64,000 nucleotides of DNA. Source: Heptranchias perlo (Eukaryota). This document shows, in pieces, positions 6,761 through 40,243 of this stretch; position 1 is the first letter of the stretch; every line of letters starts with the position of its first letter. The stretch lies in assembly GCF_035084215.1 (NCBI RefSeq), contig NC_090328.1:21638001-21702000 (forward strand), given 5' to 3'. Position numbers and translations under genes: made by a program. The notes below the pieces were generated by a model. It did no database searches and had not been told where the DNA came from. It worked only from the letters and a program-made list of their open reading frames with translations.

Positions 6761-6830
6761 AGACATCGCTTGAGTGAATTCAGAGCTCTCATCTAATTCT
6801 TGGGTTCAGAGGACACTTATTAACAACTTG

Positions 6831-10256: not shown

Positions 10257-10304
10257 GTAAGCGAGTCCCGTCATTCAGAGATAAGAGTGTAGTGATTGGC
10301 TTGG

Positions 10305-15070: not shown

Positions 15071-15107
15071 TCACAAGCTTTCGGAGCTTTGCTCCTTCGT
15101 CAGGTGA
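15071..15107 (-). ncRNA. Minimal hammerhead ribozyme motif in a single-arm Penelope-like remnant (15021-15193)
   Basis: Reverse complement reads tcac CTGACGA a ggagc-aaa-gctcc GAA AGCT T gtga. Confidence 0.7.
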
Positions 15108-15753
15108 AGTGAAGAGTTACATAAAGGAACAGCATATATAGTCAGTATGCTGTGCCTTTATGTATAATAAAGGCACAGCATACTGACTATATAGGCAGAT
15201 GTACCCCTAGATCAGACGTACCACACTGGAGTGTCAGGCTAGACTATGACCTCAAACTCCTGTGGGACTCAGACTCACAACTTTCTGACACAGCTGTGTC
15301 TTAAAATATTAAAATAGAAAAGGATAGGAAAATGTTGGGGTGGGGAATCAAATTACTAATCAAAGAGGCCAAAAATCCACCTGGACCAGGAGCGTACAGA
15401 TGAAGACCATGGGGTAGAATTTCCATCCGGCTTCTCTAATCTCCTGCCGTAACTTCGGTGTAAAATCAGATTAGTTTTATATACTTACTAGTCCTGGGCC
15501 AGAAACCATTAAACAGCAGAAATAAAAAGGGGAAAAAAATTACGGATGCTGTAAATTTGAAATAAAATCAGATCTATCAGCATCTGTAAAGAGAAGAGAC
15601 AAGTTAACATTTTGAGTATATACCCTTTATCAGAACCCACTGAACAGCATTTTGATGTCAGACACTATTGCTTCCCACTGCCCATCATTGCACTTGTGTG
15701 GATTAGGTGGGGAGGGTTACCTGAATTGAGATTGATCTGAAGGGTAGAGTTGA

Positions 15754-16723
15754 CATAAGAACATCAGAAATAGGAGCAGGAGTAGGCCATACGGCCCCTC
15801 GAGTCTGCTCCACCATTCAGTAAGATCATGGCTAATCTTCAACCTCAACTCCACTTTCCCGCCCAATCCACATATCCCTTGATTCCCCTAGAGTCCAAAA
15901 ATCTATTGATCTCAGTCTTGAATAAACTCAATGACTCAGCATCCACAGCCCTCTGGGATAGAGAATTCCAAAGACTCAACCCTATGAGTGAAGAAATTTC
16001 TCCTTATGTTTCAATGAGATCATCTCTCATTCTTCCAAACTCCAGAGAGTATAGGCCCATTCGACTTAATCGCTCCTCATAGGACAACCCTCTCATCCCA
16101 GGAATCAATCTAGTGAACCTTTGTTGCACTGTCTCTAAGGCAAGTATATTCCTCCTTAGGTAAGGAGACCAAAACTGTACACAGTACTCAAGGTGTGGTT
16201 TCACCAAAGCCCTGTACAATTGCAGCAAGATCTCCTTACTCTTGTACTCCAACCCCCTTGCAATAAAGGCCAACGTACCATTTGCCTTCCTGTACATGCT
16301 GTACCTCCATGTTGACTTTCTGTGTTTCGTGTACAAAGACACCCAAATCCCTCTGAACTTCAACATTTAACAGTTTCTCACCATTTAAAAAAATAGTCTG
16401 TTTTTCTATTCTTCCTACCAAAGTGAATAACCTCACATTTCCCCACATTATACTCCATCTGCCACCCTCTTACCCACTCACTTAACTTGTTTATATCCCT
16501 TTGCAGACTCTTTGCGTCCTCCTGACAGCTTACTTTCCCACCTAGCTTTGTATCATCAGCAAACTTGGATACACTACACTTGGTCCCTTCATCCAAGTCA
16601 TTAATATAGATTGTAAATAGCTGAGACCCAAACTCTGATCCTTGCGGCACCCCACAAGTTACTGCCTGCCAACCTGAAAATGACCCGTTTATTCCTACTC
16701 TCTGTTTTCTGTCTGTTAACCAA
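15754..16723 (-). mobile_element. CR1 LINE 3' part (RT C-terminus and 3'UTR), interrupted; resumes at ~18177-18246
   Basis: VPQGS, SKFADDTKL and HLEYCVQFWSP motifs; frameshifted; same family as 61072-63137. Confidence 0.92.
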
Positions 16724-17885
16724 ACCAAGAAGATAGATGAGGGCTGTGCAGTAGACGTGGTCTACATGGACTTCAGCAAAGCCTTTGACAAGGTACCGCA
16801 TGGTAGGTTGTTACATAAGGTTAAATCTCATGGGATCCAAGGTGAGGTAGCCAATTGGATACAAAATTGGCTTGACGGCAGAAGACAGAGGGTGGGTGCA
16901 GAGGGTTGTTTTTCAAACTGGATGCCTGTGTCCAGCGGTGTGCCTCAGGGATCGGTGCTGGGTCCGCTGTTATTTGTTATTTATATTAATGATTTGGATG
17001 AGAATTTAGGAGGCATGGTTGTAAGTTTGCAGATGACACCAAGATTGGTGGCATTGTGGACAGTGAAGAAGGTTATCTAGGATTGCAACGGGATCTTGAT
17101 AAATTGGGCCAGTGGGCCGATGAATGGCAGATGGAGTTTAATTTAGATAAATGTGAGGTGATGCATTTTGGTAGATCAAATCGGGCCAGGACCTACTCCG
17201 TTAATGGTAGGGCGTTGGGGAGAGTTATCGAACAAAGAGATCTAGGAGTACAGGTTCATAGCTCCTTGAAAGTGGAGTCACAGGTGGATAGGGTGGTGAA
17301 GAAGGCATTCAGCATGCTTGGTTTCATTGGTCAGAACATTGAATGCAGGAGTTGGGATGTCTTGTTGAAGTTGTACAGGGCATTGGTGAGGCCACACTTG
17401 GAATACTGTGTACAGTTCTGGTCACCCTATTATAGAAAGGATATTATTAAACTAGAAAGAGTGCAGAAAAGATTTACTAGGATGCTACCGGGACTTGATC
17501 GTTTGACTTATAGGGAGAGGTTGGATAGACTGGGACTTTTTTCCCTGGAGAGTAGGAGGTTAAGGGGTGATCTTATAGAGGTCTATAAAATAATGAGGGG
17601 CATAGATAAGGTAGATAGTCAAAATCTTTTCCCAAAGGTAGGGGAGTCTATAACGAGGGGGCATAGATTTAAGGTGAGAGGGGAGAGATACAAAAGGGTC
17701 CAGAGGGGCAATTTTTTCACTCAAAGGGTGGTGAGTGTCTGGAACGAGCTGCCAGAGGCAGTAGTAGAGGCGGGTACAATTTTGTCTTTTAAAAAGCATG
17801 TGGACAGTTACATGGGTAAGATGGGTATAGAGGGATATGGGCCAAGTGCAGGCAACTGGGACTAGCTTAGTGGTATAAACTGGGC

Positions 17886-18105
17886 ATGATGTGGAGATGC
17901 CGGTGATGGACTGGGGTTGACAATTGTAAACAATTTTACAACACCAAGTTATAGTCCAGCAATTTTATTTTAAATTCACAAGCTTTCGGAGATTTTCTCC
18001 TTCCTCAGGCAAACATTTGCCTGAGGAAGGAGAAAATCTCCGAAAGCTTGTGAATTTAAAATAAAATTGCTGGACTATAACTTGGTGTTGTAAAATTGTT
18101 TACAA
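17886..18105 (-). mobile_element. Penelope-like-derived palindromic insertion (family A) inside the 3'UTR of a CR1
   Basis: 90-bp arms 17924-18013 and 18016-18105; TSD gtataaactgggc at 17873-17885 and 18106-18118. Confidence 0.85.
18016..18054 (+). ncRNA. Minimal hammerhead ribozyme motif, variant (mirror copy on - strand at 17975-18013)
   Basis: tttgc CTGAGGA a ggaga-aaa-tctcc GAA AGCT T gtgaa; compensatory stem II change and G-U pairs in stem I. Confidence 0.7.
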
Positions 18106-18692
18106 GTATAAACTGGGCGACATGGACATGTTGGGCCGAAGGGCCTGTTTCCATGTTGTAACTTCTATGATTCTATACCCATGCTAATATATTACCCCCA
18201 ACCCCATGAACCTTATCTTGTGTAACAGCCTTTTGTGTGGCACCTTCCTTGACTTCAATTTGGAAGTACCTTGAGACTCATGAATATGATTTCAATTGCT
18301 CCACATGGAGGCTTTGGCAAGTTGTAAAATTGGATTCAATATGTCTGGTCATTTGTGGTCTGGCACCATGAAAAATGACCATGAAATCTGACTAGTTGTC
18401 ATAAAAACCGAACTGATTCATTAAGATCCTTCAGGGAGGGGAATGTGTCACCCCTGGTATGCCTTAGACGTGACTCCAGTCCCATACTACATAGTTCACT
18501 CCTAATGTCTGCTGAAGTGGCCTAGCAAGTCACTCAGTTGTATAAACAAAAGGCCACTACCACTTTCTCAGGACAATTTGTGATAGGCAATAAATTAATG
18601 CAACCTTACCAGCATCACCCACATCCTGAAAACACAAAGTACATTTTTTAAAATGACCTGACATTGTTTTTTTAAAATTGACTAATAACTTT

Positions 18693-19267
18693 CATAGGAA
18701 CATAGGAACAGGAGTAGGCCATTCAGCCCCTCGTGCCTGCTCCGCCATTTGATAAGAGCATGGCTGATCTGTGATCTAGCTCCATATACCTGCCTTTGGC
18801 CCATATCCCTTAATACCTTTGGTTGCCAAAAAGCTATCTATCTCATATTTAAATTTAGCAATTGAGCTAGTATTAATTGCCATTTGCGGAAGAGAGTTCC
18901 AAACTTCTACCACCCTTTGTGTGTAGAAATGTTTTCTAATCTCACTCCTGAAAGTTCTGGCTCTAATTTTTAGACTGTGTCCCCTACTCCTAGAATCCCC
19001 AACCAGAGGAAATAGTTTCTCTCTATCCACCCTATCTGTTCCCCTTAATATCTTATAAACTTCGATCAGATCACCCCTTAACCTTCGAAACTCTAGAGAA
19101 TACAACCCCAATTTGTGTAATCTCTCCTCGTAACTTAACCCTTGAAGTCCGGGTATCATTTTAGTAAATTTACGCTGCACTCCCTCCAAGGCCAGTATGT
19201 CCTTCCGAAGGTGCGGTGCCCAGAACTGCTCACAGTACTCCAGGTGTGGTCTAACCAGGGTTTTGTA
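18693..19267 (-). mobile_element. Young CR1 LINE 3' fragment
   Basis: ORF ...RFTKMIPGLQGLSYEERLHKLGLYSLEFRRLRGDL; (gttcctat)n tail; nearly identical to the 24800 and 43415 copies. Confidence 0.93.
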
Positions 19268-21111
19268 AATAAATTTTCTAAATACTGAAAAGAGGTAGCC
19301 TTGAAATTGCTGTTGACAATGTCAGCAGACAAAGCTTTAACTTACTTGTACAATATACTTCGGTCTGCTGTTTTAGGAGAGGTGTTAACCCATTTAAAGT
19401 AAAATGTTTTCCTTATTTGACAATGGCACAAATGAGAGCTGCTATGTCCCCCAGCACCAGCTGTCACTTTAAATTCTGTCTGAAATCACTTAAGAGACTG
19501 TACAGATGTAATGCTTTTTAGTTGGAGTGCCATTTTGGGGTTGAAATTCCTCTATGTGCTACTTTTGACGCACGGCTTAACATTGTTGCGTCGACCTAAA
19601 CCTAAACTGGTGCACTGAAAACAGCGTGCATCAAAATTTCAACTCCTCTGTTGTGTGAATATTGCATAAATGTCTGATGTCAACAAAAAAAAGATCTTGA
19701 ATCGTTGTTGCTGTTTGATTTCTCTTTTGGTTGCAGTAGGGACTAGCCGACAGTTGGACTGGGATGTGCCACTGTTTAGGGAGAGGTCAGGTAGCAGATT
19801 CCAAAAATAATCTTTCAGCCTCGCTCCACCCCTCTGCACGGCTGAAATATAATCTTCGTGACCCTGCCACTAGTGCCCCCATTCTGTAGCAAGAGGCCAG
19901 TCATCGTGGCCCACATACCATTTGGTGTAATGCACCACCAGGAACATTTGAACAGTATTTGAATCTTGTGTGCTCGTTGCTTCTACTATCTTGTACCTAA
20001 CCACTGGATGATTCAGTGTGAAATTCTTACGGTAGACCCAATTTTTACATCGGCAGCATTTCCTTTTACTAAGTTTTATCTCCTAGTAGAAATCGTTCCA
20101 TATTTCTTCAAATCTGCCAGGACTCTCACCCATAGTGCCAAGCAGCCTACTGCCAAACCTCCAGCAGCACTGTTTTGGTATCTCGTGCTAGCAGGCATGA
20201 GATACCACTTTGGAAGAACATCCTCATTTCATTCTTTTCAGTGAATCATAGAATCTTACCACAACAACAACTTGCATTTATTTAGTGCCTTTAATGTAGT
20301 AAAACGTCCCAAGGCACTTCACAGGAGTGTTATCAGACAAAAGTTTACCCTGAGCCGCATAAAGAGATATGACCAAAAGCTTGGTCAAAGAGGTAAGTTT
20401 TAAGGAGAGAGAGGTAGAGAGGTGGGGATGTTTAAGGAGGGAATTCCAGAACGTAGGGCCTATGCAGCTGAAGGCACAGAAGGAGACCATTCGGCCCATT
20501 GTATCTGTGCTGGCTCTCTGAAAGAGCTATCCAATTAGTACCACTCCCCTGCTCTTTCCCCATAGACCTGCATTTTCTCATTCAGGGGGACATTGCAAAG
20601 CTCTCTGTGCCCGCACACCACTTTACATTATACTTTTTAGAAAGTATGAAAGGAAGCTCCCCCACAACTTAGCTTGAGGGGGAACGGCACCAACTATCGT
20701 GGAACTGAGCAATACAAACCATGAAGGTTGTAGGCTTGGTGCCTAGTCTCTGGTGAGTCAACTAAACTTAGCCAAGATAGCAGTGTCAGTTAGGAAAGGA
20801 AAAATCAGCCAGGATCCCCAACCTAATGCCTATTCAATGATTGCTATACTGCAGGACAGAATCAAACTGGGCTGTGATGCTGCCCCATGGTCCAATAGTC
20901 TGCCAACACTCGCTGTCTAATGAGGCACCCTGCGCTCGTGGAACAATAGCCCAACAAAAGTCATCATCACCTTCTGGTGAGAATGGGTGAAAAATTGGAT
21001 GGGAGGAAGGTGCAGGAAAGGTGAAGTTCCCAGCCAGCCCACCAGGCGGGAACTCGCTACCCCGGAAGTGATTCAGATGAGGTTGATGAGGCCCGTGTGT
21101 TCTGTGTGCAG

Positions 21112-21235
21112 GTGTTGATTTACAACGAGGAGCAGTGGGACATCTACTTGAAGAAAAAACGGCGTGTGTTTCTGCTGCTGTTTCCGATGAATCCGTCGCT
21201 GGAGACAGTGGGGTTTACGAGGCTTCTGTCAAACG
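21112..21235 (+). CDS. WWC2: WWC2 coding exon
   Basis: gtgtgcag acceptor and cg|gtatgt donor. ...EEKTACVSAAVSDESVAGDSGVYEASVK, a conserved WWC motif. Confidence 0.9.
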
Positions 21236-21454
21236 GTATGTGCACTTTGTCCTGTGTTTCACAGTAGCTCAAAGATGTCGTGTGAAGAGTCACTAATTTG
21301 ATGGTTGTACGCTCGGGGGCTGAAATTCCTACGTGCTCTATTTTTAGTGCACTGGTGTGCTATTTAACAAAGTCATTCTCCAGTTTATTTTAAACACATA
21401 ACCAATTTCTAAAGATAGTACAAATGTTTCAACCCATTTGTCACAGTATTAGCA

Positions 21455-22290
21455 TCAATCAGGTTTCCACCCGAACTACGGAACTGAAACGGCCCTTATC
21501 AAAGTCACAAATGATATCCTATATGACTGTGACCATGGTAAACTATCCCTCTTCATCCTTCTCGACCTATCTGCAGCCTTTGACACGGTTGACCACACCA
21601 TCCTCCTCCAACGCCTCTCCTCCAATGTCCAGTTGGGTGGGACTGCCCTCGCCTGGTTCCATTCCTATCTATCCAATCATAGCCAGAGAATCACCTGCAA
21701 TGGCTTCTCTTCCCACTCCCGTACCGTTACCTCTGGAGTCCCCCAAGGATCTATCCTTGGCCCCCTCCTAATTCTCATCAACATGCTGCCCCTCAGCGAC
21801 ATCATCCAAAAACACAATGTCAGGTTCCTTACGCACGCGATGACACCCAGCTCTTTTTTTTAATTCATTCATGGGACGTGGGCATTGCTGGCAAGGCCAG
21901 CATTTATTGCCCATCCCTAATTGCCCTTGAGACCTCTACCTCACCACTACCTCTCTTGACCCCTCCACTGCCTCTGATTTGTCACACTGCTTGTCCGATT
22001 GGATGAGCAGAAATTTCCTCTAATTACATATTGGGAAGACCGAAACCCACCACAAACTCCGTTCCCTAGCCACCGACTCCATCCCTCTCCCTAGCCACCG
22101 TCTGAGGCTGAACCAGACTATTTGCCACCTTGGCTTCCAGCTTGATCCTGAGCTGAGCTTTCAACCCCATATCCTCTCCATCATCAAGACCACCTACTTC
22201 CACCATCGTAACATCACCAGTCTCCGACCCTACTTCAGCTCATCTGCTGCTGAAACCCTCATCCATGCCTTTGGTACCTCTAGACCCACC
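21455..22290 (+). mobile_element. L2-type LINE RT fragment
   Basis: SGFHPNYGTETALIKVTNDI...LLDLSAAFDTVDHTILLQRL...GVPQGSILGP. Confidence 0.88.
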
Positions 22291-23901
22291 TTGGGCCGGC
22301 CAGTATTTATTGCCCATCCCTAGTTGCCCTGAGAAGGTGCTGATGGGCCTTCTTCTTGAACTAATATAACTGAGTGGCTTTCTAGTGCACTTCGGAGGGC
22401 AGTTAAGAGTCAACCACATTGGTGTGGGACTGGTGTCATATACAGGCCAGACCGGGTAAGGACAGCAGGTTTCCTTCCCTAAAGGATATTAAGTGAAGCT
22501 ACTCACTGGTAGTGTGTGGCATTGCATGTCCATGAACCATCACCCCGACACATTTCTACATTGCACATTAAAGAACAAACGGTTTTCTTAGGCAGCAATA
22601 AATGAACATCGTAGAAATGAGAGAGAGAAGAAATCAGTGGTTTATGCACCTCTGATACCCAGGGGGCAATTTTAACCCACCCTACCTAGTGGGAAACAGG
22701 GCTGATGCGGAGTTAAAATTGCTCCAAAAACTTAGCACCCTGTTCTCGCTCCATTCCCGCCCATCATCGCTTTAACTGGGCCCTTATAGGCAGCTGAGGC
22801 ACCCACTTGACTCAGTAATTGGCACCACTCCATCTCTTAAAGCCCATTCCCTCTCCTTTAAGGTTCTTCAGCTCGTGTAGAATTTTTTTTCCCCCGCACC
22901 TGACATAAAAATCTTTCGGGCTCTTCTAGATTCTTTAAATGTGGCAGTTTCCTCGTCTGGTCTTGCTGCAGCAACACCACAGTTTCCTCCCTCACAGTGG
23001 CAGGATCACCATTTGTGGCGGGGATCCCAACTGGAGCATGTCCTGCAGAAGCAATGACTCCAAAACTAGGAAAATAGAAGTCCCGCCTTGTATTTCTGCC
23101 AGCGGCGAAACTGACTCGGAGGAAAATTCTACCCTCAAGTGCTGAAAAGTCATTTATCTGTTGGGGCATGTCTCTGCTGAGTCTAACCCCATTCTCACCT
23201 GATGTCCACAGGTTTACTTTCCCTGGGGTCACTCTCTGGGAGCTTCCTGTATGGCTCAGCACCACATTGGACAGTACATTTACTCACCAGGCCATTGTGG
23301 GAGGAGTGGTAATTGCTTTTTTTTTTAGTGGCAAGGCAACTTTAAAGGGGCAACCCCACAATATTGAGCTCCTAGTTGGGAGCCGTGCTCAGAAGGAGCA
23401 TGAGTCAGATATGCAATACTGTAGTCCCGATTCTACAACCTACACCTCCCTGTGAGTATGGCTTCCCACTGGGAGCATGATATTGTGGAATTATCCTTTC
23501 AATTACAAGTACTGTATCTTCCACATCTACTGTACTTACTCTAAAATCCAGCATATTACATAGAGTTACATAGAATTTACAGCATAGATACAGGCCATTC
23601 GGCCCAATAGGTCTATACCAGTGTTTATGCTCCACACGAGCCTTCTCCCACCTTACTACATCTCACCTCTATAATATGCATCTTCTTCTGTTCTTTGTCT
23701 GTTATAAGTGCAGGAGACCATGTTATACAGGATACGTGTGTGCTCCATAACCATGGGGAGTAACTTGCACACGGCTGTGACATATTCCCTGGGTAAATTT
23801 GTCATGTATTTTATGGTGGATTTTTACTGTTCCCAGTTCTCTTGTTCATCTTGTTTAGTTTATAATTTCCATTAACTTAAATTTTACAACTCCCCTGTTA
23901 G

Positions 23902-23982
23902 GCCAAGTGAAACTGAAGATGCTATTTACGATGAAGATGAGCCTTCCACACTAGAGGCAGCTCAAATCCAGATAGGACTGAA
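23902..23982 (+). CDS. WWC2: WWC2 coding exon (start of C2 domain)
   Basis: ctgttag acceptor and aa|gtaagt donor. PSETEDAIYDEDEPSTLEAAQIQIGL. Confidence 0.9.
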
Positions 23983-24555
23983 GTAAGTGCTTTTTTTAAT
24001 TCAATCTGCCTGGCTGAATTTGTGACCCTGAATTTTTTTTTCCTTTTTGTCCTCTTCCCATCAGTTTTTCCCCAGTTCTCCTGAAGCCACTGAGTCCTTG
24101 CTGAGATACAGTTCCATAGGCCCAACAGTAAATTGCCCAAGCAGGTCATTCATAATTTTGAGCATTTTGGTGCGACCTATTTGACCATGGGGATTGGGTC
24201 CTCACAGCTGAACTCAATACTACATTCTACATTTTTTCTATCTTACAGGCGCTTATATTAATGTAAATTGTTGTTATATTCACCCAACTCCTACACGCAT
24301 GCACTTTCAGTAGAAATTGCTGGATAGCGATGAGAAGCAGGAACCCTGGCTGATGTTTGCCTCCTTAACCGAGGGTGGCTAAGAGCAATTGTGATCCTGC
24401 TACAGCTGCCCCGGCTGAGATGAGTTAACTCAGCACCGGACAGGGATCAAACTTGGAACATTCTCGGTTACTCGCCACTTTAACCAGTTGAGCCTGGCCG
24501 GTATTTCCATGTCAAAATATCTGACTCTTTATTTTTCTTACTGTGTCCACAACAG

Positions 24556-24642
24556 GTATGATCCCACCAATGCGAGTTTTATTATAATCATCGTGCAGCT
24601 GAGAAATCCAGCCGCCCTACAGGTGCCACCTGGATGCAAGAT
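24556..24642 (+). CDS. WWC2: WWC2 coding exon (C2 domain)
   Basis: caacag acceptor and at|gtaagt donor. YDPTNASFIIIIVQLRNPAALQVPPGCK. Confidence 0.9.
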
Positions 24643-24799
24643 GTAAGTACTGCTCTCCGTGAAGACCCAATGCGTCCTTTCTTAAGGCAGAGCTATCAAC
24701 ATTAGAGAACGGTTAGGACTGAGATTAATTATCAAAAAGACCAACACAATGCTTGATCATCTCTGGATGTGCCTCCTTAGTTTAGATGAAGGCCATCCC

Positions 24800-26385
24800 A
24801 ATGCCGGAAATCCCAAGAAAACTAATATTAAATCGGGGACAGGGACTCGATAAAATTAAGATAAGATTGCCGATGCCCTAACTATAATCTTTCAAAGTTC
24901 TCTAGATTCAAGAACTGTCCCTCTAGATTGGAAAATTGCACATGTCACTCCACTTTTTAAGAAAGGAGAGAGAGGGAAACCGGGGAATTGTAGACCAGTT
25001 AGCCTAACATCTGTTGTGGGGAAATTGCTGGAGTCTATAATTAAGGATAGGGTGACTGAACACCTCGAGAATTTTCAGTTAATCAGGGAGAGCCAGCATG
25101 GATTTGTGAAAGGTAGGTCGTGCCTGACAAACCTAATTGAATTTTTTGAAGAGGTGACTAAAGTAGTGGACAGGGGAATGTCAATGGATGTTATTTATAT
25201 GGACTTCCAGAGGCATTTGATAAGGTCCCACATAAGAGACTGTTAGCTAAGTTAGAAGCCCATGGAATTGAGGGAAAAGTACAGACTTGGTTAGGAAATT
25301 GGCTGAGCGAAAGGCGACAGAGAGTAGGGATAATGGGTAAGTATTCACATTGGCAGGATGTGACTAGTGGAGTCCCGCAGGGATCTGTCTTGGGGCCTTA
25401 ATTATTCACAATATTTATTAACGACTTAGATGAAGGCATAGAAAGACTCATATCTAAGTTTGCCGATGACACAAAGATTGGTGGCATTGTAAGCAGTGTA
25501 GATGAAAACATAAAATTACAAAGGGATATTGATAGATTAGGTGAATGGGCAAAACTGTGGCAAATGGAATTCAATGTAGACAAATGTGAGGTCACCCACT
25601 TTGGATCAAAAAAGGATAGAACAGGGTACTTTCTAAATGGTAAAAAGTTTAAAAACTGGGATGTCCAAAGGGACTTAGGGGTTCAGGTACGTAGATCATT
25701 GAAGTGTCATGAACAGGTGCAGCAAATAATCAATAAGGCTAATGGAATGCTGGCCTTTATATCTAGAGGACTGGGGTACAAGGGGGCAGAAGTTATGCTG
25801 CAGCTATACAAAACCCTGGTTAGACTGCACCTGGAGTACTGTGAGCAGTTCTGGGCACCGCACCGTCGGTAGGGCATATTGGCCTTGGAGGGAGTGCAGC
25901 GTAGGTTTACTAGAATGATACCCGGACTTCAAGGGTTAAGTTACGAGGAGAGATTACACAAATTGGGGTTGTATTCTCTAGAGTTTCGAAGGTTAAGGGG
26001 TGATCTGGTCGAAGTTTGTAATACATTAAGGGGAACAGATAGGGTGGATAGAGAGAAACTATTTCCGCTGGTTGGGGATTCTAGGAGTAGGGGGCACAGT
26101 CTAAAAATTAGAGCCAGACCTTTCAGGAGTGAGATTAGAAAACATTTCTATACACAAAGGGTGGTAGAAGTTTGGAACTCTCTTCCGCAAACGGCAATTG
26201 ATACTAGCTCAATTGCTAAATTTAAATCTGAGATCGATAGCTTTTTGGCAACCAAAGGTATTAAGGGATATGGGCCAAAGGCAGGTATATGGAGTTAGAT
26301 CACAGATCAGCCATGATCTTATCAAATGGCGGAGCAGGCACGATGGGCTGAATGGCCTACTCCTGTTCCTATGTTCCTATGTTCC
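24800..26385 (+). mobile_element. Young 5'-truncated CR1 LINE (RT domain)
   Basis: QHGFVKGRSCLTNL, YMDFQ, KFADDTK; tail gttcctatgttcctatgttcc. Confidence 0.95.
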
Positions 26386-26439
26386 CTTCCTTTAGAAGTG
26401 GTCCGGTGAGTCAACAATTTAAACTCCTCCCTCCTATAC

Positions 26440-28485: not shown

Positions 28486-29479
28486 GTGAGTGAAGAAGAA
28501 GCTTTATTAGGACTATTTCACAGTCATTAAATAATGAAACAAACAGCAGTCTTGTAACAGACTCTTGGAAAGCTCACACAGCAATCTGAGAAGTACTCGA
28601 CAGTTAATATTAAGGTAAAAATAGATTTTTTTTAAACCATCCAGCAATGAGCAACAAGATTACTATAGAACAAGCAGCTGTTTGCTGTCTGTATTTCAAA
28701 ACTAAGCAACATGCTGGTGTTGAAAAGATAATGAGCTCAATTTTACTTGCACTGGAATTTCTTTCCCACTCGTCTGCTGTAACTTCAGAGGAAGCGCTGC
28801 AGAAACCCCGGGAAAACGGCGTAAAAGCACAGCAACAACAGTTGGCTCAGTCAAAACGATGGGTTCTGAAGGTTTTAAAGGTGCGGAGAGATGTGGAGAG
28901 GTTTAGGTCTGGAACTCCAAAGAGTTGGACCGAGGTGACTGAACACCTGCCATCCATGGTGGAAGGCCAGAGTCAGAGGAATGGAGTGCTTAGGATGGGT
29001 TACAGGGCTGGAGGAGGTTACAGAGCTATGGTAATGGGAGGCTATAGAGGGATTTATAGACAAGGAGAAGGATTGTAAATATGATGTTTTGGAGAAGGGG
29101 GAGCCAATGTGGATCACTGAGAATGGGGGTGATGGATGAGCAGGAGTTGGTGCAGCAGAGCTTTGGAAGATGGGAGACCAGCAAAGAAAGCATTGGGGGG
29201 AGTTGAGGCTGGAGATGATGACGGTATGTATCAGAATGTCAACGGTGAAGGGGCTGAGGTAGGAGTGGAAGCAGGCAGTGTTTTGCTGAGTAGTCTGCCA
29301 ATTTTGCATTTTTGCTTTTTTGTCCTGCCAATGCATTCCTTCATTATTCTTGGTTGGGTATTTATTTTTGGCATTCTGAATGTGCTTCATGGTTTACATG
29401 AGGAAGAAGAGTTCATGAGACATTAACGATTTCAGTTGCAAGATCATCTGAGTGTTTGATCTGCGCCCGTCACCACCCC

Positions 29480-30095
29480 AGGACCTGCATTTTACAGCCT
29501 CCACACGTACCTGAACATGTCTTCACTGCCTCCAGTTACACAAGATAGACTGTCACATATTGACAGGAGATTTTTCAGTAAATTGGGAACAGGGACAACC
29601 CTTCCTGTAGAACGGAATATTACTGCTGCATGTTACAGAATTCTTCCAACCTACCAGCGAGAGCATCTATTATATCAGTGCACACCTTATCAAACAAGGA
29701 GTGACTGCTATGTTTGCAAGGAGAAATACCTTCATCATTATTCCTATGGAAAGGAAACATCAGCTGTGCAGAGGGCACAGCTTTCACTGGACGACAGAGT
29801 TCACTTGAGTGCAGGGTGTTGTAGCTGGCATCCATGTGGGCATCAGAACACTTCATATTATCCCCATATGAGGCCTACATGACTGGAAAGGGTTTGCAAA
29901 CAATTGCTGATATCTGACCACAAAAACATCATTACATATGTCAGTGGCCATTATCCAAGAAGCAGCCATGATGCCTTCATTGTGCAGTAGTCCACGGTGC
30001 CTGCATCTGAAAGAGAAGAAGGGTAGATTGCTCTTAGAAGAACAGGGCTATCCTCCGTATTCATGGCTGATGACCCCACATCGAAACCCAAGAGC
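29480..30095 (+). pseudogene. PIF/Harbinger transposase (HARBI1-like DDE nuclease) relic
   Basis: Fragments VQGVVAGIHVGIR, LISDHKNIITYVSGHYPRSSHDAFI and GRLLLEEQGYPPYSWLMTPHRNP occur in the expected order. Confidence 0.8.
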
Positions 30096-30478
30096 ATTGA
30101 GTTACATGGAAACTACAGCACAGAAACAAGCCATTCGGCCCAACAGGTCCAAGCCGGCATTTATGCTCCACATGAGCCTCCTCCCTCCCTACTTCATCTA
30201 ACCCCATCAGGATACCCTTCTATTCCTTTCTCCCTTGTGTGCTTATCTAGCTTCCCCTTAAATGCAGAGGCTGGAAGGCTGAGCATATGTTTGCTGTTTC
30301 ACAGCTAACACTTCCACCTTCAAGAAAAGTGTACCATGCTGCAGTGGCACAATGAAAGAATGTGTGCAAAAGGTTGTGCAAAATGCTTCAAATGGTACCT
30401 CCCAGAGGACATGTCAATTCACATGATTGATGAGCTCCACGGAAGTTTGAGCAAAGTTGAACAGTACAGTTTCCAGTG

Positions 30479-30740
30479 TTTTCCTCCTGATACCAGCAAA
30501 CTTATTCCTCATTTGGCACCAGTACATGGCAGTTGAGTGACCGCATTGAATCAAGTCAGTGACCTCCCTCTATGCAGCTGTTCCCTTTGCTTCTACTGGA
30601 GGGTGTTCTTTGGCCCGAAATAGGGGCACCCTTCTTTGAAGCATCTCTTGCAGCTAGACCTCCAACCCTTCAAAGAGAGCAATGTTGCTCACATATCTCT
30701 GCTGTACCACTACGAACAACTAGTTCATTTTTCTGTCATC
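30479..30740 (-). pseudogene. Myb/SANT-like DNA-binding gene relic of the same Harbinger element
   Basis: With frameshifts reads AA*REVTDL..NAVTQLPCTGA..QMRNKFAGIRRK; convergent with the transposase relic. Confidence 0.55.
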
Positions 30741-31777
30741 GCCACAACTTTTCCCTTTAACAGAGAACTGCAGCCCTTGACGAGCTTTGGCCTCGCTAGA
30801 TTTTCCACTCCCCAGCCCAGTCTTTTCATGTGTCAGCAGCCTATTCAAATCAGGGGAAGGACTCCACTCCGAAAACGGAGCCCTTGTCCTGAACTGGCAG
30901 CATCAATATGCCTTAACCATGGGCTAGCTCAAGCACGTTTTTGCCATTATCAGATAATTGGGGCTATTGTTTAATTGTTCCTCCTTCTGAAGAACAGCAT
31001 TGCCTCCAATACTGGAGCTGAGATCAAGTTTACCAGGTCGAGAAGACTGTATGGGTTTGGCTGTTTTGTGGCACAGTACATTTATATACCAGTGAACTTC
31101 AAGTACATGAGAAGGATCCCAGAAACAATAATTAATATCTCGGCTAGATAAAAGTTATCAACAGTCTAGATTGCAGATTTTCTTTCTCTGTTACTCAGCT
31201 TTAATTGAGGAACATGACAGCAACAAAGCCAAAAGCAAATTGCTGCCCTTTTCTGGGCCTGGCAAAACGAGACATTTCAATTGTGCCCTTCCAAAGAACA
31301 AAAAATATTAAAAGGATTGCTGGCTCAATTTATACTCGCTTTAAGATAAGGTAAATTAACAAAAAAATTATAGTGGATTGCACACAAAATGCAGCATTCT
31401 TGAATCTGGCATGCTATTTACTTTAGACTCCCTATGATTCCAGACAAATTACTGTTGGGTAGCAATTACTTTAAGTCGTATTCCTAATAATTTGGTCAAT
31501 GCCTCAACCAACCAACCAAAATCAGGTTAATTGCTATTTATGCAATTTTCATCCATGCTAAATGGCTGCCGTATTTGCTGACATAATGAGTTATTGTGCT
31601 TGTAAGTAATTCTTTTGAGGCTTTACTGAGAGACATGATAAGACACTATAAAAATACACATCTTTCCTATTTAAAATTCCTGTGTGAAAGAGTTACACAA
31701 ACACACTAACCAAGTTGTTAAAAACAGTGGTCAGACTAATTTCTACCTAGATAATTTTCTGGTTTCTTTTTCTAAAG

Positions 31778-31942
31778 GCTGGAACCCAGATCAGCCTGGC
31801 AGACCTCTCCAGCACCGGTGAGACCTCCACCAGCTGGTACAACATGCTACATTACAAGAGCATGAACATTCATAATCCAAAGAATAAAGCACAAAGTGAG
31901 GACGCCTCACTTACACCTCAGCCTTGCAGCACTATAGACAAG
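31778..31942 (+). CDS. WWC2: WWC2 coding exon (end of C2 domain)
   Basis: tctaaag acceptor and aag|gtaagg donor. AGTQISLADLSSTGETSTSWYNML... Confidence 0.92.
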
Positions 31943-33843
31943 GTAAGGATTATTCAGGGGAGTGAACTAGGTTTGGTAGAACCATTGCATGGAACTGAAC
32001 ACAGAGGTTTGGTTCTTGTTTGGACAAATAACTGGAACTGGAATGCCAAGTCGTAAGAAAGTGGGAGCTGGCAGGAGTAATCCTGTCTTACTAAAGGGCT
32101 CCGACTTACAATTTATTATAGTTCAGCATTGATAATAGACAGACTGTCCTCCCCTTCTGGGTGAAGGAGGAACCCAGTATATCCCTTATATTCCATGTAA
32201 GTCCAGGAGCTTGGTTCGAACCTGAGTTAAGAAGGATGAAGTAAGGCATACAAGTATTTGCGGGTAAGGCAGTGGTCTATTTGCTTAATTCCTTCCTTAT
32301 TTTATTGCACACATCATCCTATTTATAAAGCCTTCCATTCTGACACTGATTCTTGTTGTGGAAATTGCTATGGGTCTGAAATGGGCACCGTACACAGAGC
32401 ATGCGCCCCAACCAGGAGGCCCAAGACCAGCCCAGAATTAGGCTTCGGGCCCTATTAGTATTAGTTGGGTGAGCTGCCAGCGCCAGTCACACCTCCACAG
32501 GCAGCTCGCCTATTTTGAAAAGATGAATTTTGGGCCGTGTGCCTCGCAGGTAGTAAGTCCTGAGAGGAGTTGAGGCAGTAACTGGGGTGAGGTGCAATCT
32601 GGATACTCTGTCGGGGGAGCACCCTTGCTCCTTCTGGCACCACAGGAATGTTTTTTTAAACTTTTTTTTTAAACTAACCTTTTGGTGGTGGCCGCTGCTT
32701 AGGCCCGCAGCGGCCGCTGAAGAATCCCGGGCGAAGCAAGCCTAGCTGCTGCTCCTCTCATTGGTATCAATTTTGGTAGAGGGGGCTTAAAACAGGCATC
32801 AGGCCCTCTTTTACAGATGCTAGGGGCCTAACATCTGAAAAATGGTCCAACCCAATATCGCGTCGGATGTCTTTCATTCGTCCTTTGGGCGCAGGACGTT
32901 GTTTCTCGAAATTGGCCCTTGTTTAAGCCCATAAAACGAGCACAGGGTTGTCCAATTTCTACCTCCTTGGCTCCCTGCTTTATCACGTTGCGTTTGATGC
33001 TCTTTTCAGGACCTGCACTGTTACTTGTTATAATGTACAGAATGCTTGGCCCTCAAAAGTTGTGTTTTAAAGAGAGTGGGCTATATTTGTAGCAAGTGCC
33101 CAAACCACTATTTTTAGAAATGTGGGGGAAGTGGAAACAATCCTAGACCCCTCCTTCTCCCATCCCTCACTTAATATCACTCATGTAATCTAATCAGCCC
33201 CTTTGAGGTTCACACATCCCTAAAGAATGATGTATTTCCTCAATAAACTATGACTCAGTATTTGACCGAATAGTTCAGATGACATTTGGCAAAGTAGGGT
33301 CAACATATGTTGGTCAACAGAGTGGTATTGGAAAACTCACGAGACTCGAACTGATGATTTATCGCCAAATTGTTCAGTAGTCCGTGCGAAATGTTAAAAC
33401 TGAAACCACTTGAAGCATTGAGAGGTTTAACTTCATTATATCACAAGGAGAGGTTTAGCAGGTTATTTGTAGAGCTGGTTATTTGATCAGCTAATTTTAC
33501 TTCCGGCCAAAGCGTTATGAAACTTCAGTTAAATGCCTTGTTGTCTGGTGAATTTGCCTAGCAGGATTTTGTAGATGAAAGTACAAGCGACATTACTAAA
33601 TTATGTATTTGTAATTTAAGTATCACAAGTAATTTCCATGGGCGGAAACTACAGTTAATTATAACCTCTGTTCAGCAGAGACACTGAATGTGCATTCTTT
33701 AGGGGAAACTGAAATGCCTTTGGTGAGTTGTGTCATATGATTTGTTGCTCAAGTATAAAATTCTACTTGAAAGAAAAGAATTCTCTATATTCTGCCTGGA
33801 CTTCTTTCAGTTTTGGTGCCTTTCTTCTCTTTGTATCCAGCAG

Positions 33844-33944
33844 GATGCTGTGTCTGCACTCCTGGAGAGGACATCTGTTGAGCTGCAGGCAGTAGAACAG
33901 GAACTGGCTACAGAGGAAGGGGATGCTGCACCAGGCGAAGACTG
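33844..33944 (+). CDS. WWC2: WWC2 coding exon (alternative start 33841, tandem CAGCAG acceptor)
   Basis: DAVSALLERTSVELQAVEQELATEEGDAAPGED(W); donor tg|gtactg. Confidence 0.88.
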
Positions 33945-34920
33945 GTACTGTAGTCCTTGTGATATTATACAATTTACGTTTTCAATGTAGCATTCTTCTC
34001 TCGTTTGTATAAAAACAGTGACAATGATGTTCCTCTTGAGTTCTGCTGGGCTCTCACCATAACTCCATTGGGAGTCTGGCGAAACGTCCAGCAAACAGGC
34101 AGGGATGCAGGGATCTTTGGGCCTGTGTTACTAACTATTTTGCCTAGGACCACAGTCCCAAGCAGTGTCTTCCTCGAGGCCCACTTTGTAATCCTCCAAA
34201 ATGATGGATGAAACCCAGGCCTGCGTTTGCAATCCACTGTATATTGCGCTCTTGTCTTCTAATGTCCCACCCTGGGCAGGAGCTGCATAAAAACCAGTCA
34301 CTTTTCAGAGGATAGGGGAAAAATGAAACTACAACAGTTTTAATGGAACTATCGGGCCTACAGTTTTAATAGGATGCTTTCACTTGCTCTTTGGATGTTC
34401 GTATTGCTCCTCCTCCTGGTTGACGAGGAAGAGTGGTGGTAGCAACAAGTCTCTGCTCTGGTGACATCCCACAGCTGAGCATGCCATGGATAGAGCTATA
34501 CAGAGCACCGGGTCTGCCAGTGTCACAGGGAAAGAGCAGGTGGGCTGCAAGTGGCCTTCAGGCCACCTTTTAAGCAGCAGTGAAACATACCATGATTAGT
34601 CAACAACTCCATTATTGTTGTACCATGCGACTACCAGGATGGTAGAAGGCGAACTAGATGAACCGTTATCTTTTTTCGTCTAGCAATTCCTAAGTTCCTA
34701 TACATAGAAATACTTAGAAGTTACAACACAGAAACAGGCCATTCAGTCCAACCAGTCCGTGTCATTGTTTACTGTACACGCGAGCAAATAGTTCTAATCA
34801 CATTTCCCTACCCTGTTCCTCAACCCGTCATCCACCTATCCAATCTAACCTTGAATGTTGACAGTGGGTAGAACTAGATGAAGTCCTTGTAAGATTTTTA
34901 TGACTTGTTGCTAAATGCAG

Positions 34921-35098
34921 GCTGGAGATGCTGGTGGAAGATACTGCTGAGGCACAGGAAGAAGGAGATGGCACTGACAAAGAGACAGAGGCGGAAGAGG
35001 ATGCTGCAGAACTGATTGTATCTCAAGAAACACCCCAGAGTATGACTGTTGAAGAAAGTGGTGGTGTGACGGAGTCACAGACAGTGCTGCCAACTCTG
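34921..35098 (+). CDS. WWC2: WWC2 acidic coding exon
   Basis: aatgcag acceptor and ctg|gtaaga donor. (W)LEMLVEDTAEAQEEG...VLPTL; phases fit both neighbours. Confidence 0.87.
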
Positions 35099-36162
35099 GT
35101 AAGAATGTACACCATTATGCACCTCCATTAGAAAGAGAGCCCAATTTTGCGCAGTGCTCTAGCAGTCGTGGCACTGAGCATGTTGGCATTGCATTTATCC
35201 TCTCCTCTCCCCCACACAACAACAAAAATGCATATTTGTTTGTACCTTAGCATGGAATGACACAAGAGCTGCAGTTGTACAATTGAGAAAATTGGGTGGG
35301 GGGAAAGAAAATATAAATTGAAGCTCTTGCAGTAGCAGGCATCCCTGGGCTAGGAGCTCTTGACTATTTGTCTAATTGAGTAAGTGGAATGTCCAGCTGG
35401 CCGGTATATTATTGTGTGCCAGTAAGTTGGCTGAGGAGTGAAGTAAGTAACTCTTGAGAGAAGCTCAAAATGTGCCAGACTTGACAGATCTTGGCATTAA
35501 ACTCTGGCTGATAAAAGCAGGTTTTCACTAAGTGCCTACACCCATAATCCTGGTACACATGCCACTAAATGTTGTAAGACTGGGCATTAGGATGGGTGCC
35601 AATTACCTCAAGGTTTCACTGGGCTCTCCCATCTGTGTCTCATACACTTGCAATGCAGTTTCCACCTCGTTATTAGGTTTTAATGGAAACTGTTCTGAAT
35701 GTAAGGCTGCAGTGAATAACTCAATGCATTTATATTACAAAACTGCTTTGAATTCAAGTGACCCTGTAATAGCTTTGTGCAAGCGGAGTTGTTTGAAAGT
35801 GAGTTGTGACTTTTAATTTCTGCCCACCAAGCCTGACCCTGGGAATGGTCTGTACAGGCCAAAGCTGTGACGACCTCATTGCTGGCATGTGTGGCCAGGC
35901 TGAGTGGCAGCCAACCCTGCTGGAAGCAGCCATTTACAATGCTGCTGCTGCTCTACTGCTTCCGGAGGAGCCTAGGAAAACTGTTTCTTTATGTTGGCTT
36001 AGGCTCTTTCTGAGTTAGTCGCACTGTCTCATTTATCTTAGTGTTTTGCCTGCTTTTAGTAAAGGTAAAGGCAACACTGATGTTTGGTGAACTATTCTTC
36101 GAGCGGTTCTCATAGCTTCCATTGAACAGCAGCTGACAGTGTGTTGCATCCGATGTGCACAG

Positions 36163-36327
36163 GTTGACAAGGAAATGAACACTGAGGAGGCTGTGGTGGA
36201 GTGTGTGGCCGTCAGGCCTAAGGACAGGACCAACCTGAACAACAGGCAAAAGCATTTTGTGAGGAACAGCATGATTGTAAGATCCCAAACCTTTTCTCCA
36301 GGAGAAAGAAACCAGTACATTTGCAGG
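36163..36327 (+). CDS. WWC2: WWC2 coding exon
   Basis: gcacag acceptor and agg|gtaagg donor. VDKEMNTEE...AVRPKDR...IVRSQTFSPGERNQYICR. Confidence 0.94.
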
Positions 36328-37361
36328 GTAAGGAATTCTTCTTTTCTTTTTCACTGTATTGATAGCGATTCACAATTGTTTGATTCATACACAACTCTTT
36401 ATATATAAATTTGTCAAATTCATGATCACGTGCTCCCAGCGGCAAGACACACTTGCAGGGCGCAGCCCATGATTTTCCATCGATAATAGACAGAAATGCA
36501 TAGATTGTGTGCCTGTGATTTCCCGTAATATGTTGCCTCTTTGTGTGTGTGTGTGTGTGTCTCCATGACAGGAGCATGTGTTAGCAGAATATGCTCTAGT
36601 ACAAAGGGCCTTAGCACTAGTACATAGTGCAGATGTGCATATTGTAAAAGTGAGCCCAGTATCACTTTGCTTGCCAGTATGAATACTGAGGAAGATTTAT
36701 ATATAATACTAAATAAACCTATATACCGTGCTGCTGCTGTGTTGCTCCCCATTATAACACCCCTGTCACATACAATCTCAACATTCACTATGATGACTTT
36801 CTTCTGTGTTTTCTTACCTCTTGCTGAACTTGCTGTTTACCATCCCTAGGCACGTTAGAGAATAAACAGATGTTGGTTCATTCACTTGTCCCTCATTGTA
36901 ATGGCGCCACCAATACTGACCAGCGCTGAACAGAAACCATAATTGTGTAGGCCACAGCCGTTTATGGTAGAGTCAAAATAGCAGTAGAATTGAGACAGCA
37001 GTCTAATTAGGGAAGAGAGTTATAATATCATCCTAGGTATATCTGCAAAATGTGTTGAGACTGTACTGGGTCATATAATGGAGCTGGGGGAATGCTCTGA
37101 AGGTTCTGAATAATTTGACAGTGTCAAACTTTGAATCGGTACATCCACAATCAAATTTTTAATCCCTATATTTTAACGAATGTATGCAATTCCACTGTAG
37201 GACTATTATCCTGATTATAGAGGACCCATTAGATGTCTGAAATATTAGTTACATTTAGTAACTTTATATAGCCATTTAGAAGTAAATCAGTATTATATGA
37301 TTAATACACTAAGAATAATTTGGGATAATAATAGATGTTTACAACTTCATTTTGAGAACGG

Positions 37362-37590
37362 GTTGTTGCAGCTGGTTAGCGCACTGTCCTTTCACCCCTG
37401 GGACCTGGGTTTGACTCCAGTCCAGAATGTTGAGATGAAAATCACCTCTCTCTGCTGACTGTCAAGCTTGCAGATGAAATGAGTTTGGGGAGTCTAAATG
37501 CAGATCCCATTGGGCATGGATCCACAACACAAAGCTGTCCTGGAATAAAGTGGCAGTTTCACTCAGTAAGACCAAAAGGATGTCTGGTAT
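37362..37590 (+). mobile_element. LF-SINE-like element
   Basis: cctttcacccctgggacctgggtttgactccagtccag...tgaaatgagtttggggagtct...tccacaacacaaa resembles the recalled LF-SINE 5' half. Confidence 0.6.
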
Positions 37591-37773
37591 ATTCTCCAAT
37601 ATATTTAAGGTCCATCATTAGGACAGAGTAGAGGAATCTTTATTCTAATTCATGCCTTTGCTATACCTGAGTTGGGAGTGCTTGATGCTATCACGTATGT
37701 ATATTTGGATGATGTTCACTGTGGATGTAAGCTACATATTGAGTTTTTATCCCCTTTTTTTCTGTATCAACAG

Positions 37774-37866
37774 TTGAATCGAAGTGACAGTGACAGCTCA
37801 ACATTAGCCAAAAGGTCGCCTTTTGTGCGCAATGCCATGGAACGGCGAAGCTTGCGGGTGAAAAGG
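37774..37866 (+). CDS. WWC2: WWC2 coding exon (region homologous to the aPKC-binding segment of KIBRA)
   Basis: caacag acceptor and agg|gtatgt donor. [31 protein letters not shown]. Confidence 0.94.
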
Positions 37867-38587
37867 GTATGTCTTGTAAATAATTCGCAAAAATATGCAC
37901 ATATTGGGAAAGAGAAAATCTTACCTTATTAAAATATTAATAAAGTTCCTTGGGACTGTGGTGACACAAAATGCCACATAAGAGTGGGGTGTGGTTTGGA
38001 GCCAGTCTGTGAGCTGCCAGGCCCGGCCAAAGGAGGCGCTGAGCAAAGACATGAGGCTGCTTCCTGCGCAAAAGACTAAGACACCCATGTTGTTCTTGAC
38101 CACTCCTTAGCAACCAGTTCAGAGACCCATAATGGTGGACTGTTCCATTAACAGTAAGAAAACAATGAATGGGTAAAAGTATAGAGATAGAAAAACAACA
38201 AAAAACAACTTCCGGAGCATAACACTATATAAAACATTTTAGCATGTTGATCATTTGTCTGAACATTTATTTTACTAGTAGTGGAATTCCATTTTTAAAT
38301 AAATACTTTAAACAATGAGAAATATAGAGCATACTCCTGGCTCCGCAGCACTCCTGACAGCTACTGCCAGCCCCCTGCCCTGCTTGTCGCAACCTGATTT
38401 CTGTGAGGGGATCTAAAACAGGTTGTTAGGCCCTCATTTACATATGCAAAGGACCTCACGCCTGTTTTAGGCAGCCATCATTTTGGGTCGCACATTTTTC
38501 AGGCATGTTTGGGGTGCAGAACGTAAAGCAGACACAATGATGCCCAATTTCTATCCCACTATATCAAACAAAAATCAGCCAACAGAG

Positions 38588-38762
38588 TGGGATAGATTTT
38601 GACTTTCTGCGATAAATCTAAAACAGGTGACAGCAAATCGCCATCCCGTTTTACATCCATCCCGGTTTTTATTTCCATTGAAGTCAATGGGAGAGATGTA
38701 AAACGGGATGCCGATTCACTGTCACCCGTTTTACACCAACACACAAAGTCAAAATGACCCCA
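38588..38762. mobile_element. Palindromic MITE; related copy at ~1362-1528
   Basis: Ends gggatagattttgacttt / aaagtcaaaatgaccc; internal aaaacaggtga..cccgttttaca repeats; central ccattgaagtcaatgg. Confidence 0.75.
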
Positions 38763-39716
38763 GTATGTCCAATATGCACTGTCATGGACTCTCCCCAACG
38801 TACCTCATCACCCGAGGAAGATAAACAATTTCACATAAACCTTCCAAGAAGTTAAAACTGAAGTTTCTTCACGACTCCAGAGGTAATCAAGCAAAAGCTC
38901 CATTATAATCGAAATTATTCAGCTCTAGCTGGTTGTATTCTGCATCAGTTCCAGATGTTAGATTATTCAGCACTGAAAGCAGGCTACGGAAGTTCAGTCA
39001 TTCCTCACTGGGAAAAAAATGTGTGCATGGAGGGGCAGTGGGGGGGGGCAATGTCCAAGTTTTTACAATCATGAAGACAATTGCAATGATGAATATATAT
39101 ATATATAGGTACGTTTTGTATGTAAAGAAGAAAGGAAATACAAGGAATATAATTACTGTTCAAGGCAAAGAAACCATCATTTATTATCAGAGGGCAATTT
39201 TATGAATGGATATTGACACTGGGGAGCCTTGTCTACCAGCTGCACCTAACAGAAAATTATGGTTGCACTGCCCGCGATTTCCCATGGGGACAGAATGACA
39301 TGGAAAGAGCACCTGTGATTTCCAATACGTGTGGCCAAAGGGCAGGGATCCCTGCCCAGAGCACACATTCATAAAATAGGGCCTCATTTCCTAACACAAT
39401 GGGGTTCTTAGCTAATTACAACCCCTTAAGAAGTCTTACCTTGTGGAGTAGCGCAGTGAATGCCATTCAGTTGAAGCATTTAGAAAGATAAAGAAGAGAT
39501 TACAGCTTCAAAAAGAATAGGAGTACAGATTAAGAATTTGTATGAGAGGAACACAAAAATGATTTATGCCGGACCTGAAAAAGGCTGAACAATGTAATGA
39601 GCTGGATGCATTGAATGGCCAGTTTACAAGCTGTAAATTAGGGGAACAAGTGTTCTGAAATTATTTTAAATCCTTTACTTCACCTGTGTGATTTTGTTTT
39701 TGATGTCCCGGTACAG

Positions 39717-39959
39717 ACCCTCTGCCAACCGCTTGTGAGAAGAACAACTGCAGAGCTCCCCATCCGCACCTCTCTCGACTTGGAGCTGGATCTCCAAGCA
39801 TCACTGACGTGGCAGAGTCGTCTGAATGATGAGCTACAAGTGCTCAGGGAACTAAAAAATAGGTTGGAGGAGATGAAAGCTAAGGGGGAGACGGAACTAC
39901 CCACATGGGTGCTGGAGGATGACAGGTTCCAGAAGCTTCTGAAACAAGCAGGAAAGCAG
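39717..39959 (+). CDS. WWC2: WWC2 coding exon
   Basis: gtacag acceptor and cag|gtatga donor. TLCQPLVRRTTAELPIRTSLDLELDLQASL...RFQKLLKQAGKQ. Confidence 0.94.
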
Positions 39960-40004
39960 GTATGAATTCAGCAATATTTAAGGTTCACAGGTCTAAGAAA
40001 ATAT

Positions 40005-40243
40005 AATTGTAAACAATTTTACAACACCAAGTTATAGTCCAGCAATTTTATTTTAAATTCACAAGCTTTCGGAGGCTTCCTCCTTCCTCAGGTGAACGAA
40101 AAAAAAACTTTTTTTTCGTTCACCTGAGGAAGGAGGAAGCCTCCGAAAGCTTGTGAATTTAAAATAAAATTGCTGGACTATAACTTGGTGTTGTAAAATT
40201 GTTTACAATTGTCAACCCCAGTCCATCACCAGCATCTCCACAT
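40005..40243 (+). mobile_element. Penelope-like-derived palindromic insertion (family A), opposite orientation
   Basis: 102-bp arms 40005-40106 and 40109-40210; tail ends ...catctccacat; TSD taagaaaatata at 39994-40005 and 40244-40255. Confidence 0.85.
40119..40157 (+). ncRNA. Minimal hammerhead ribozyme motif (mirror copy on - strand in the left arm)
   Basis: ttcac CTGAGGA a ggagg-aag-cctcc GAA AGCT T gtgaa. Confidence 0.75.

Follow-up and report, generated by a model that had tools for sequence, protein, structure and literature searches.

The window analysed here is a stretch of 64,000 nucleotides from Heptranchias perlo (contig NC_090328.1, positions 21,638,001 to 21,702,000), and a motif scan of both its strands finds seven hammerhead ribozyme motifs in four insertions of one family of Penelope-like retrotransposons (PLEs). 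Family identity, copy numbers, lineage pattern and insertion anatomy are established, and the element is of a known kind, its motif being the published minimal PLE hammerhead. The best explanation, which we consider probable, is that these are minimal type I hammerheads in the pseudo-long-terminal repeat (pLTR) of a single abundant PLE family with a Neptune-type linker, and that selection acts on the RNA fold in a few source elements, keeping the core, pairs 1–4 of stem I and pairs 1–4 of stem II, while pair 5 of stem II drifts. The first-pass annotation of the window had proposed selection on the RNA structure in several source lineages from the state of that fifth pair; the proposal is supported by pair 3 of stem II, by pairs 2–4 of stem I and by the invariant core, but not by pair 5.

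All seven motifs contain the conserved core (CUGANGA / GAAA / UH) together with stems I and II, in the order stem I of 4–5 bp, CUGANGA with C or G at N7, an extra A, stem II as GGAGX-nnn-YCUCC, GAAA, GC and UU. Nucleotide C3 lies at +6985/−6950, +18021/−18008, +40124/−40091 and −15103, each time with a stem II of 5 bp; the same scan gave one weak chance match at −13085. Stem III cannot form in the monomer, the stretch from A15.1 to U16.1 being the palindrome AGCU, and the predicted cut follows CUU. Monomer folding predicts the two-stem fold to be near the energy minimum, which has no bearing on catalysis. Rfam reported no hammerhead family among its 16 matches to the window at E ≤ 1, only miRNA-like hairpins below gathering scores. 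When both strands were re-read, the letters and coordinates first given for stem II were all correct (starts at +6993 and +40132 with G-aag-C, +18029 with A-aaa-U and −15095 with C-aaa-G). Four copies had been counted, which is right for the insertions; since three of these are palindromes with one motif in each arm, there are seven motifs, and since the arms of a palindrome are copies of each other, they are not independent.

The motif has 63,642 exact matches in the 3.25-Gb genome and the reversed pattern has none, which places it far above chance. Full-length copies are found outside the window (ten stretches) as tandem units of 3,081 bp whose open frames have 918 codons (902 amino acids from the ATG). 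For example, three motifs in locus L031 are spaced 3,081 bp apart with intact open reading frames (ORFs) in between, as in tandem pLTRs. The 902-residue protein matches RVT_1 at E 3e-10, has a C-x4-CxxC linker before the endonuclease, as does the Neptune group with its CX2-5CxxC linker between reverse transcriptase (RT) and endonuclease (EN), and shows in its translation a GIY-YIG-type motif with two cysteines. Its residues 148–882 align to ORF2 of a second PLE family (see below), which matches Pfam GIY-YIG. The full-length copies thus have the single ORF with RT followed by GIY-YIG of endonuclease-bearing (EN+) PLEs, and the three palindromes with their unequal arms represent the inverted, 5′-truncated copies with a 30–40 bp tail that go with such elements. 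Among 342 arms in the loci examined, 129 end at −38 to −31 and 131 at −1 to +9 relative to the ATG (10 are unanchored, the rest scattered); these two clusters, ~37 nt apart, are the PLE tail. A small hairpin is present where the short arms stop (window 40190–40210 and equivalents; 48–63 nt upstream of the ATG in L031). By letter counts made by eye, young lineages have A-U as its innermost pair and older ones G-C or G.U, and in some the pair is broken; the hairpin is a candidate determinant of the second start site of reverse transcription.

Structural conservation is seen at three places. Pair 3 of stem II is A-U in every window copy. Genome-wide, 8,183 copies have another base at 10.3, and among the first 100 of these matches listed, read by eye, 62 are G.U, 32 G-C and 6 broken; only 194 copies retain A with a partner other than U, and the pair is broken in ~1% of copies. 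On a midpoint-rooted tree of 66 of 236 arms, namely those with at least 250 nt of element upstream and with the hammerhead itself excluded, pair 3 underwent three events (two from A-U to G.U, one from A-U to G-C), all of which kept the pairing. In stem I, pairs 1–4 are paired in 18 of 18 haplotype classes with at least three arms, the changes being A-U to G.U, C-G to U.G and a single double change, from U-A to C-G; in pair 5 of this stem, mismatches are frequent. Across 15 lineage haplotypes (out of 16 that occurred in at least three loci, a junction variant being excluded), pairing holds at the eight inner pairs in 120 of 120 cells. Stem I of the copy at 18016 had been said to stay paired through G-U, and indeed it has two G.U pairs, which the full-length copies share and which are the state of its subfamily; that this odd stem is an artefact of a fold-back junction was considered and rejected, the same letters being present in the full-length copies.

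The third place is the core, which was followed in a flank-anchored sample of 200 arms from 140 neighbourhoods (of 52,807 and 13,198 matches, the first 100 listed in each case, all on contig C1). Only 15 changes were found in 2,200 site-observations, none of them amplified: eight are G>A at G8 or G12 (seven at CpG), one is a truncation junction and the others are single. Amplified variants occur at five of the eight free positions and at none of the 11 core positions (Fisher p = 0.005, with the classes set post hoc). That the core varies only at N7 therefore holds, and it does not mutate as freely as the loop: the core is fixed, N7 and the loop are variable. The upstream flank has shared changes in 149 of 219 columns (68%) and the downstream flank in 18 of 55. 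The sample also has the marks of minimal hammerheads, i.e., G10.1 (200/200 arms), the AGCU palindrome at 15.2–16.2 and an extra nucleotide after A9.

The pair originally flagged is the loop-closing fifth pair of stem II, for which three different Watson-Crick pairs had been noted at one position. The letters are right, but they do not amount to covariation. With the rest of the motif fixed, the genome counts are G-C 33,486, A-U 12,494, A.C 7,156, G.U 4,749, C-G 2,067 and non-C with a purine 3,611 (91 G.G, 7 G.A, 2 A.G and no U-A among the first 100 matches listed, by eye), with 79 of the 63,642 remaining. Pair 5 is thus mismatched in 10,767–10,846 copies (17%), and this within amplified lineages, as compared with a neutral background that 194 copies at a constrained site put at ~0.3% per site. 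In the flank-anchored sample it is broken in 58 of 200 arms and pairs 1–4 in 7 of 800. The tree requires at least 11 changes at pair 5 (8 on an earlier tree of 34 rows), with amplified A.C, G.G and G.A lineages along the way, and it places the C-G lineage among those with G.G. Because the tree is midpoint-rooted, the directions of these changes are unproven. Only the series G-C/G.U/A-U behind the copy at 18016 looks like a textbook compensatory path. We therefore regard the three Watson-Crick pairs of the window as a lucky draw that gives no evidence of strict covariation, and as a caution that three such pairs among four copies may be a sampling accident.

It could still be that pair 5 is itself under selection and that the A.C, G.G and G.A lineages are tolerated intermediates. 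The pair is formed in 83% of the 63,642 copies, when ~68% would be expected from the margins (hand calculation), C on its 5′ side has G opposite in nearly every case (2,067 of at most 2,146), and in young lineages it runs through G-C, G.U and A-U. These copies, however, do not count as independent; of about nine lineage states four are mismatched, A.C is commoner than either G.U or C-G, and the G-C lineages sit on a backbone of A.C lineages, one lineage having gone from G-C to A.C. Pair 5 is unpaired in 5 of the 15 haplotypes. Strict selection on it is excluded; weak selection is possible, and as an account of the pattern we find selection on pair 5 unlikely.

Two other explanations concern the pairs that are kept. 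Compensatory changes could have come from hairpin repair at the level of DNA or from template switching during reverse transcription, in which case selection on the RNA would not be needed. The element folds back very often, as the three palindromes of the window attest, so that self-templated copying is common. But hairpin repair would give direct Watson-Crick swaps and no strand bias, whereas the wobbles are found on the sense strand only as G.U and not as A.C, which favours pairing in the transcript, and hence selection at the RNA level. For example, sense-strand G.U is common at pair 3 (~62% of 8,183, from the first 100 matches listed) and sense-strand A.C rare (37 among the first 100 of 194 matches listed, by eye), and the stem I changes are likewise sense-strand G.U. 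As hairpin repair also leaves the fixed core unexplained, we consider this origin highly improbable. The fold could alternatively be kept for a non-catalytic reason, such as protein binding, promoter function or the start of reverse transcription, with the hammerhead as a structural relic. Consistent with this, catalytic mutants of an anole element did not impair insertion in vitro (PMC11167929), minimal hammerheads are described as cutting poorly (PMC4209133), and the stretch downstream of the motif is strongly conserved as well. Fixation of all 11 core positions next to a variable N7 and loop is, however, the profile of a catalytic core, and two further PLE families in the genome have the same core with different stems and with ACGU replacing AGCU; a relic of this kind is therefore doubtful in our view.

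Several points nevertheless weigh against selection on the RNA fold in a Neptune-type element as we have described it. The core is not alone in being conserved near the start codon: the downstream flank is conserved too, with changes in 13 of 40 columns in one count. For stem I pairs 1–3, the 3′ side was preset by the search patterns, which weakens the evidence from stem I. In a covariation test on the 15 haplotypes, the score was raised (0.238 as compared with 0.185 ± 0.021 in shuffles, reached in 5 of 500), but modestly so and by a measure in which related sequences can exceed shuffles; and pairs with changes on both sides were nothing unusual (243 of 500 shuffles). Independent events are few (three at pair 3 and about seven in stem I), and transitions are mutationally favoured anyway. 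Pfam did not report GIY-YIG for the 902-residue ORF at E ≤ 0.001, and the element is placed with Neptune by its linker motif rather than by an RT tree, so that this placement should be read as provisional. In the anole PLE, hammerhead mutants are reported to have had no effect on insertion in vitro, and RNA-seq showed no ends at the cut site (PMC11167929).

The mechanism that we propose for the family would run as follows. Tandem full-length copies would be transcribed through two pLTRs, as can be deduced from the cited papers and a review (PMC6765202). Two hammerheads would then pair via the self-complementary AGCU, thereby completing stem III as a dimer, and the dimer would cut after CUU, ~80 nt upstream of the start codon, probably aided by the protein of the element. 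Reverse transcription would start near the start codon, at either of two sites separated by ~37 nt, and palindromes with one long and one short arm would result from fold-back copying. Selection would act in source elements only, and dispersed copies would decay neutrally. The ~72,000 arms can be looked at as a natural mutational scan, and one reading of it is that a PLE lineage can keep spreading in vivo only with a catalytically competent hammerhead (core, stem I pairs 1–4, 4-bp stem II, dimer palindrome), although the latter is dispensable for in vitro insertion in one reconstituted PLE; we think the case for and against this evenly balanced. A requirement in vivo together with dispensability in vitro would put the essential cleavage step outside the insertion reaction, e.g., in making unit-length mRNA from tandem read-through transcripts. 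Of more modest value is a map, resolved by lineage, of the parts of a PLE hammerhead that are kept by selection; it bears on the role of the ribozyme for the element, given that it is not needed for insertion in vitro.

Within the window, the seven arms align to the last 73–129 nt of the full-length unit at 88–100% identity, and a tblastn search of the window with the PLE ORF found no such ORF. The three palindromes have arms that are 97–100% complementary and target-site duplications of 15, 13 and 12 bp; for insertion 2 (15.0–15.2 kb) no target-site duplication was found, the best flanking repeat being only 7 bp. The features are:

6829–7069, long arm on −, short arm on +: insertion 1, a palindromic 5′-truncated PLE end; the long arm reaches the start codon region, the short arm is without the ~37-nt tail; arms 97% complementary, 94–96% identity to the last ~125 nt of the full-length unit; 15-bp target-site duplication 6817–6831 / 7070–7084.
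6980–7018, +: minimal hammerhead of insertion 1; pair 5 G-C, N7 = C, predicted cut after 7013.
6917–6955, −: mirror hammerhead in the other arm of insertion 1; predicted cut after 6922.
15023–15191, −: insertion 2, one arm only and of an older lineage; it includes ~45 nt of upstream pLTR as well as a small fold-back (~15136–15192); 97% to the long C-G lineage copies L083 and L078.
15071–15107, −: minimal hammerhead of insertion 2; pair 5 C-G, N7 = C, stem I 4 bp, predicted cut after 15075.
17885–18105, both strands: insertion 3, a palindromic PLE end of the youngest (A-U) lineage; long arm 129/129 identical to full-length copies; 13-bp target-site duplication 17873–17885 / 18106–18118.
18016–18054, +: minimal hammerhead of insertion 3; pair 5 A-U, N7 = G, two G.U pairs in stem I, predicted cut after 18049.
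17975–18013, −: mirror hammerhead of insertion 3; predicted cut after 17980.
40005–40243, long arm on +: insertion 4, a palindromic PLE end in the opposite orientation; arms 100% complementary over 102 nt; 12-bp target-site duplication 39994–40005 / 40244–40255.
40119–40157, +: minimal hammerhead of insertion 4; pair 5 G-C, N7 = G, predicted cut after 40152.
40058–40096, −: mirror hammerhead of insertion 4; predicted cut after 40063.

The palindromes are predicted to fold as single hairpins of −163 to −186 kcal/mol in which both motifs are hidden. As they have no ORF either, the window copies are probably inert, and the differences between them are inherited subfamily states rather than events at these loci.

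The genome contains a second PLE family, which came to light in a search for stem II motifs altered on both sides of pair 2 (734 matches vs. 386 for the control). That this excess consists of variants of the main family was rejected; it is the second family, which makes up 69 of the first 100 matches listed (by eye), all within ~1 Mb of contig ends. It forms head-to-tail arrays of ~7.7-kb units with a minimal hammerhead of its own (ACGU palindrome, different stems). Its ORF1 (754 codons) has a weak GDSL match at E 0.011, below the cut-off, and its ORF2 (744 codons) matches RVT_1 at E 1e-8 and GIY-YIG at E 2e-6. On the sense strand, ORF2 is followed by degenerate reverse-complement telomere repeats (CCCTAA); one array adjoins a pure telomere tract, and the 5′ end points toward the contig end in four of six arrays. 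The loci are:

Contig C1, 0.93–1.02 Mb and 198.12–198.27 Mb; C4, 141.42–141.81 Mb; C5, 0.13–0.19 Mb; C6, 112.39–112.49 Mb; C7, 0.85 Mb: arrays of the second family (L168–L177, L138–L145, L151–L164).

This looks like an endonuclease-bearing, telomere-associated PLE in a vertebrate. A telomeric location has been described for endonuclease-lacking PLEs (PMC8557442), and esterases for Neptune-like PLEs of fish (PMC5408684). No title or abstract on arrays of endonuclease-bearing PLEs at vertebrate telomeres was found in a search whose reach excluded most subscription journals and Repbase. The telomere-side arrays are probably more interesting than the pair that was flagged. A third, older family is represented in the window by a decayed hammerhead in a short palindrome (53006–53061; C3 lost, first pair of stem II A-U, ACGU), with three further copies in loci L012, L089 and L115.

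The remainder of the window holds LINE-like fragments in both orientations (15760–17862, 18693–19267, 24864–26381, 43415–45015 and 61071–62665), which we take to be CR1/L2-like, with RT-like frames of 287 codons at 17002–17862 and 234 codons at 44656–43955. A GC-rich 34-bp minisatellite of ~29 copies (55905–57006) is preceded by a long C/T-rich tract from ~54,900. An open frame of 298 codons on the + strand (9554–10447) may represent a host-gene exon; it starts with a serine-rich part and lies where the GC content is higher.

Minimal type I hammerheads in the pLTRs of metazoan PLEs are known, in families rich in compensatory changes (Cervera and De la Pena 2014, PMC4209133). The motifs described here agree with them in the core, the extra nucleotide between 9 and 10.1, G10.1-C11.1, the lack of a monomer stem III, the palindromic 15.2–16.2 and a stem I of 4–5 bp, and also in the tandem copies ~3 kb apart and the opposite-strand pairs. 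They differ in that stem II has 4–5 bp rather than the 7–8 bp of the Schistosoma families, that there are more than 70,000 arms as compared with ~4,000 in coelacanth and 9,000 in Xenopus, and that the changes are here resolved by lineage. With the Neptune group of EN+ PLEs (Craig et al. 2021, PMC8557442) the element shares the single ORF with RT then GIY-YIG, the CX2-5CxxC linker, partial tandems and inverted 5′-truncated copies with a 30–40 bp tail at one end; the linker is also found in Nematis. Our literature search found no paper on hammerhead ribozymes of Penelope elements in cartilaginous fish.

The non-LTR retrozymes (Li, Clavereau, Pollet, bioRxiv 10.64898/2026.07.22.740005) are likewise non-coding, hammerhead-bearing derivatives of PLE pLTRs; the preprint covers one chondrichthyan, and Neptune and Poseidon in five vertebrate classes. 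Retrozymes, however, are head-to-tail tandems, whereas the window copies are inverted or single insertions, three with target-site duplications, and a classification of the latter as retrozymes was for this reason rejected. Poseidon of Anolis carolinensis (Frangieh et al. 2024, PMC11167929) resembles our family in having a pLTR hammerhead and two insertion end points that define the tail, and for it the tail has been explained by two start sites of reverse transcription. In Poseidon, however, the ORF begins at stem II and both start sites lie inside the ORF, whereas the H. perlo family has its hammerhead ~80 nt before the ATG, with end points at about −35 and +2.

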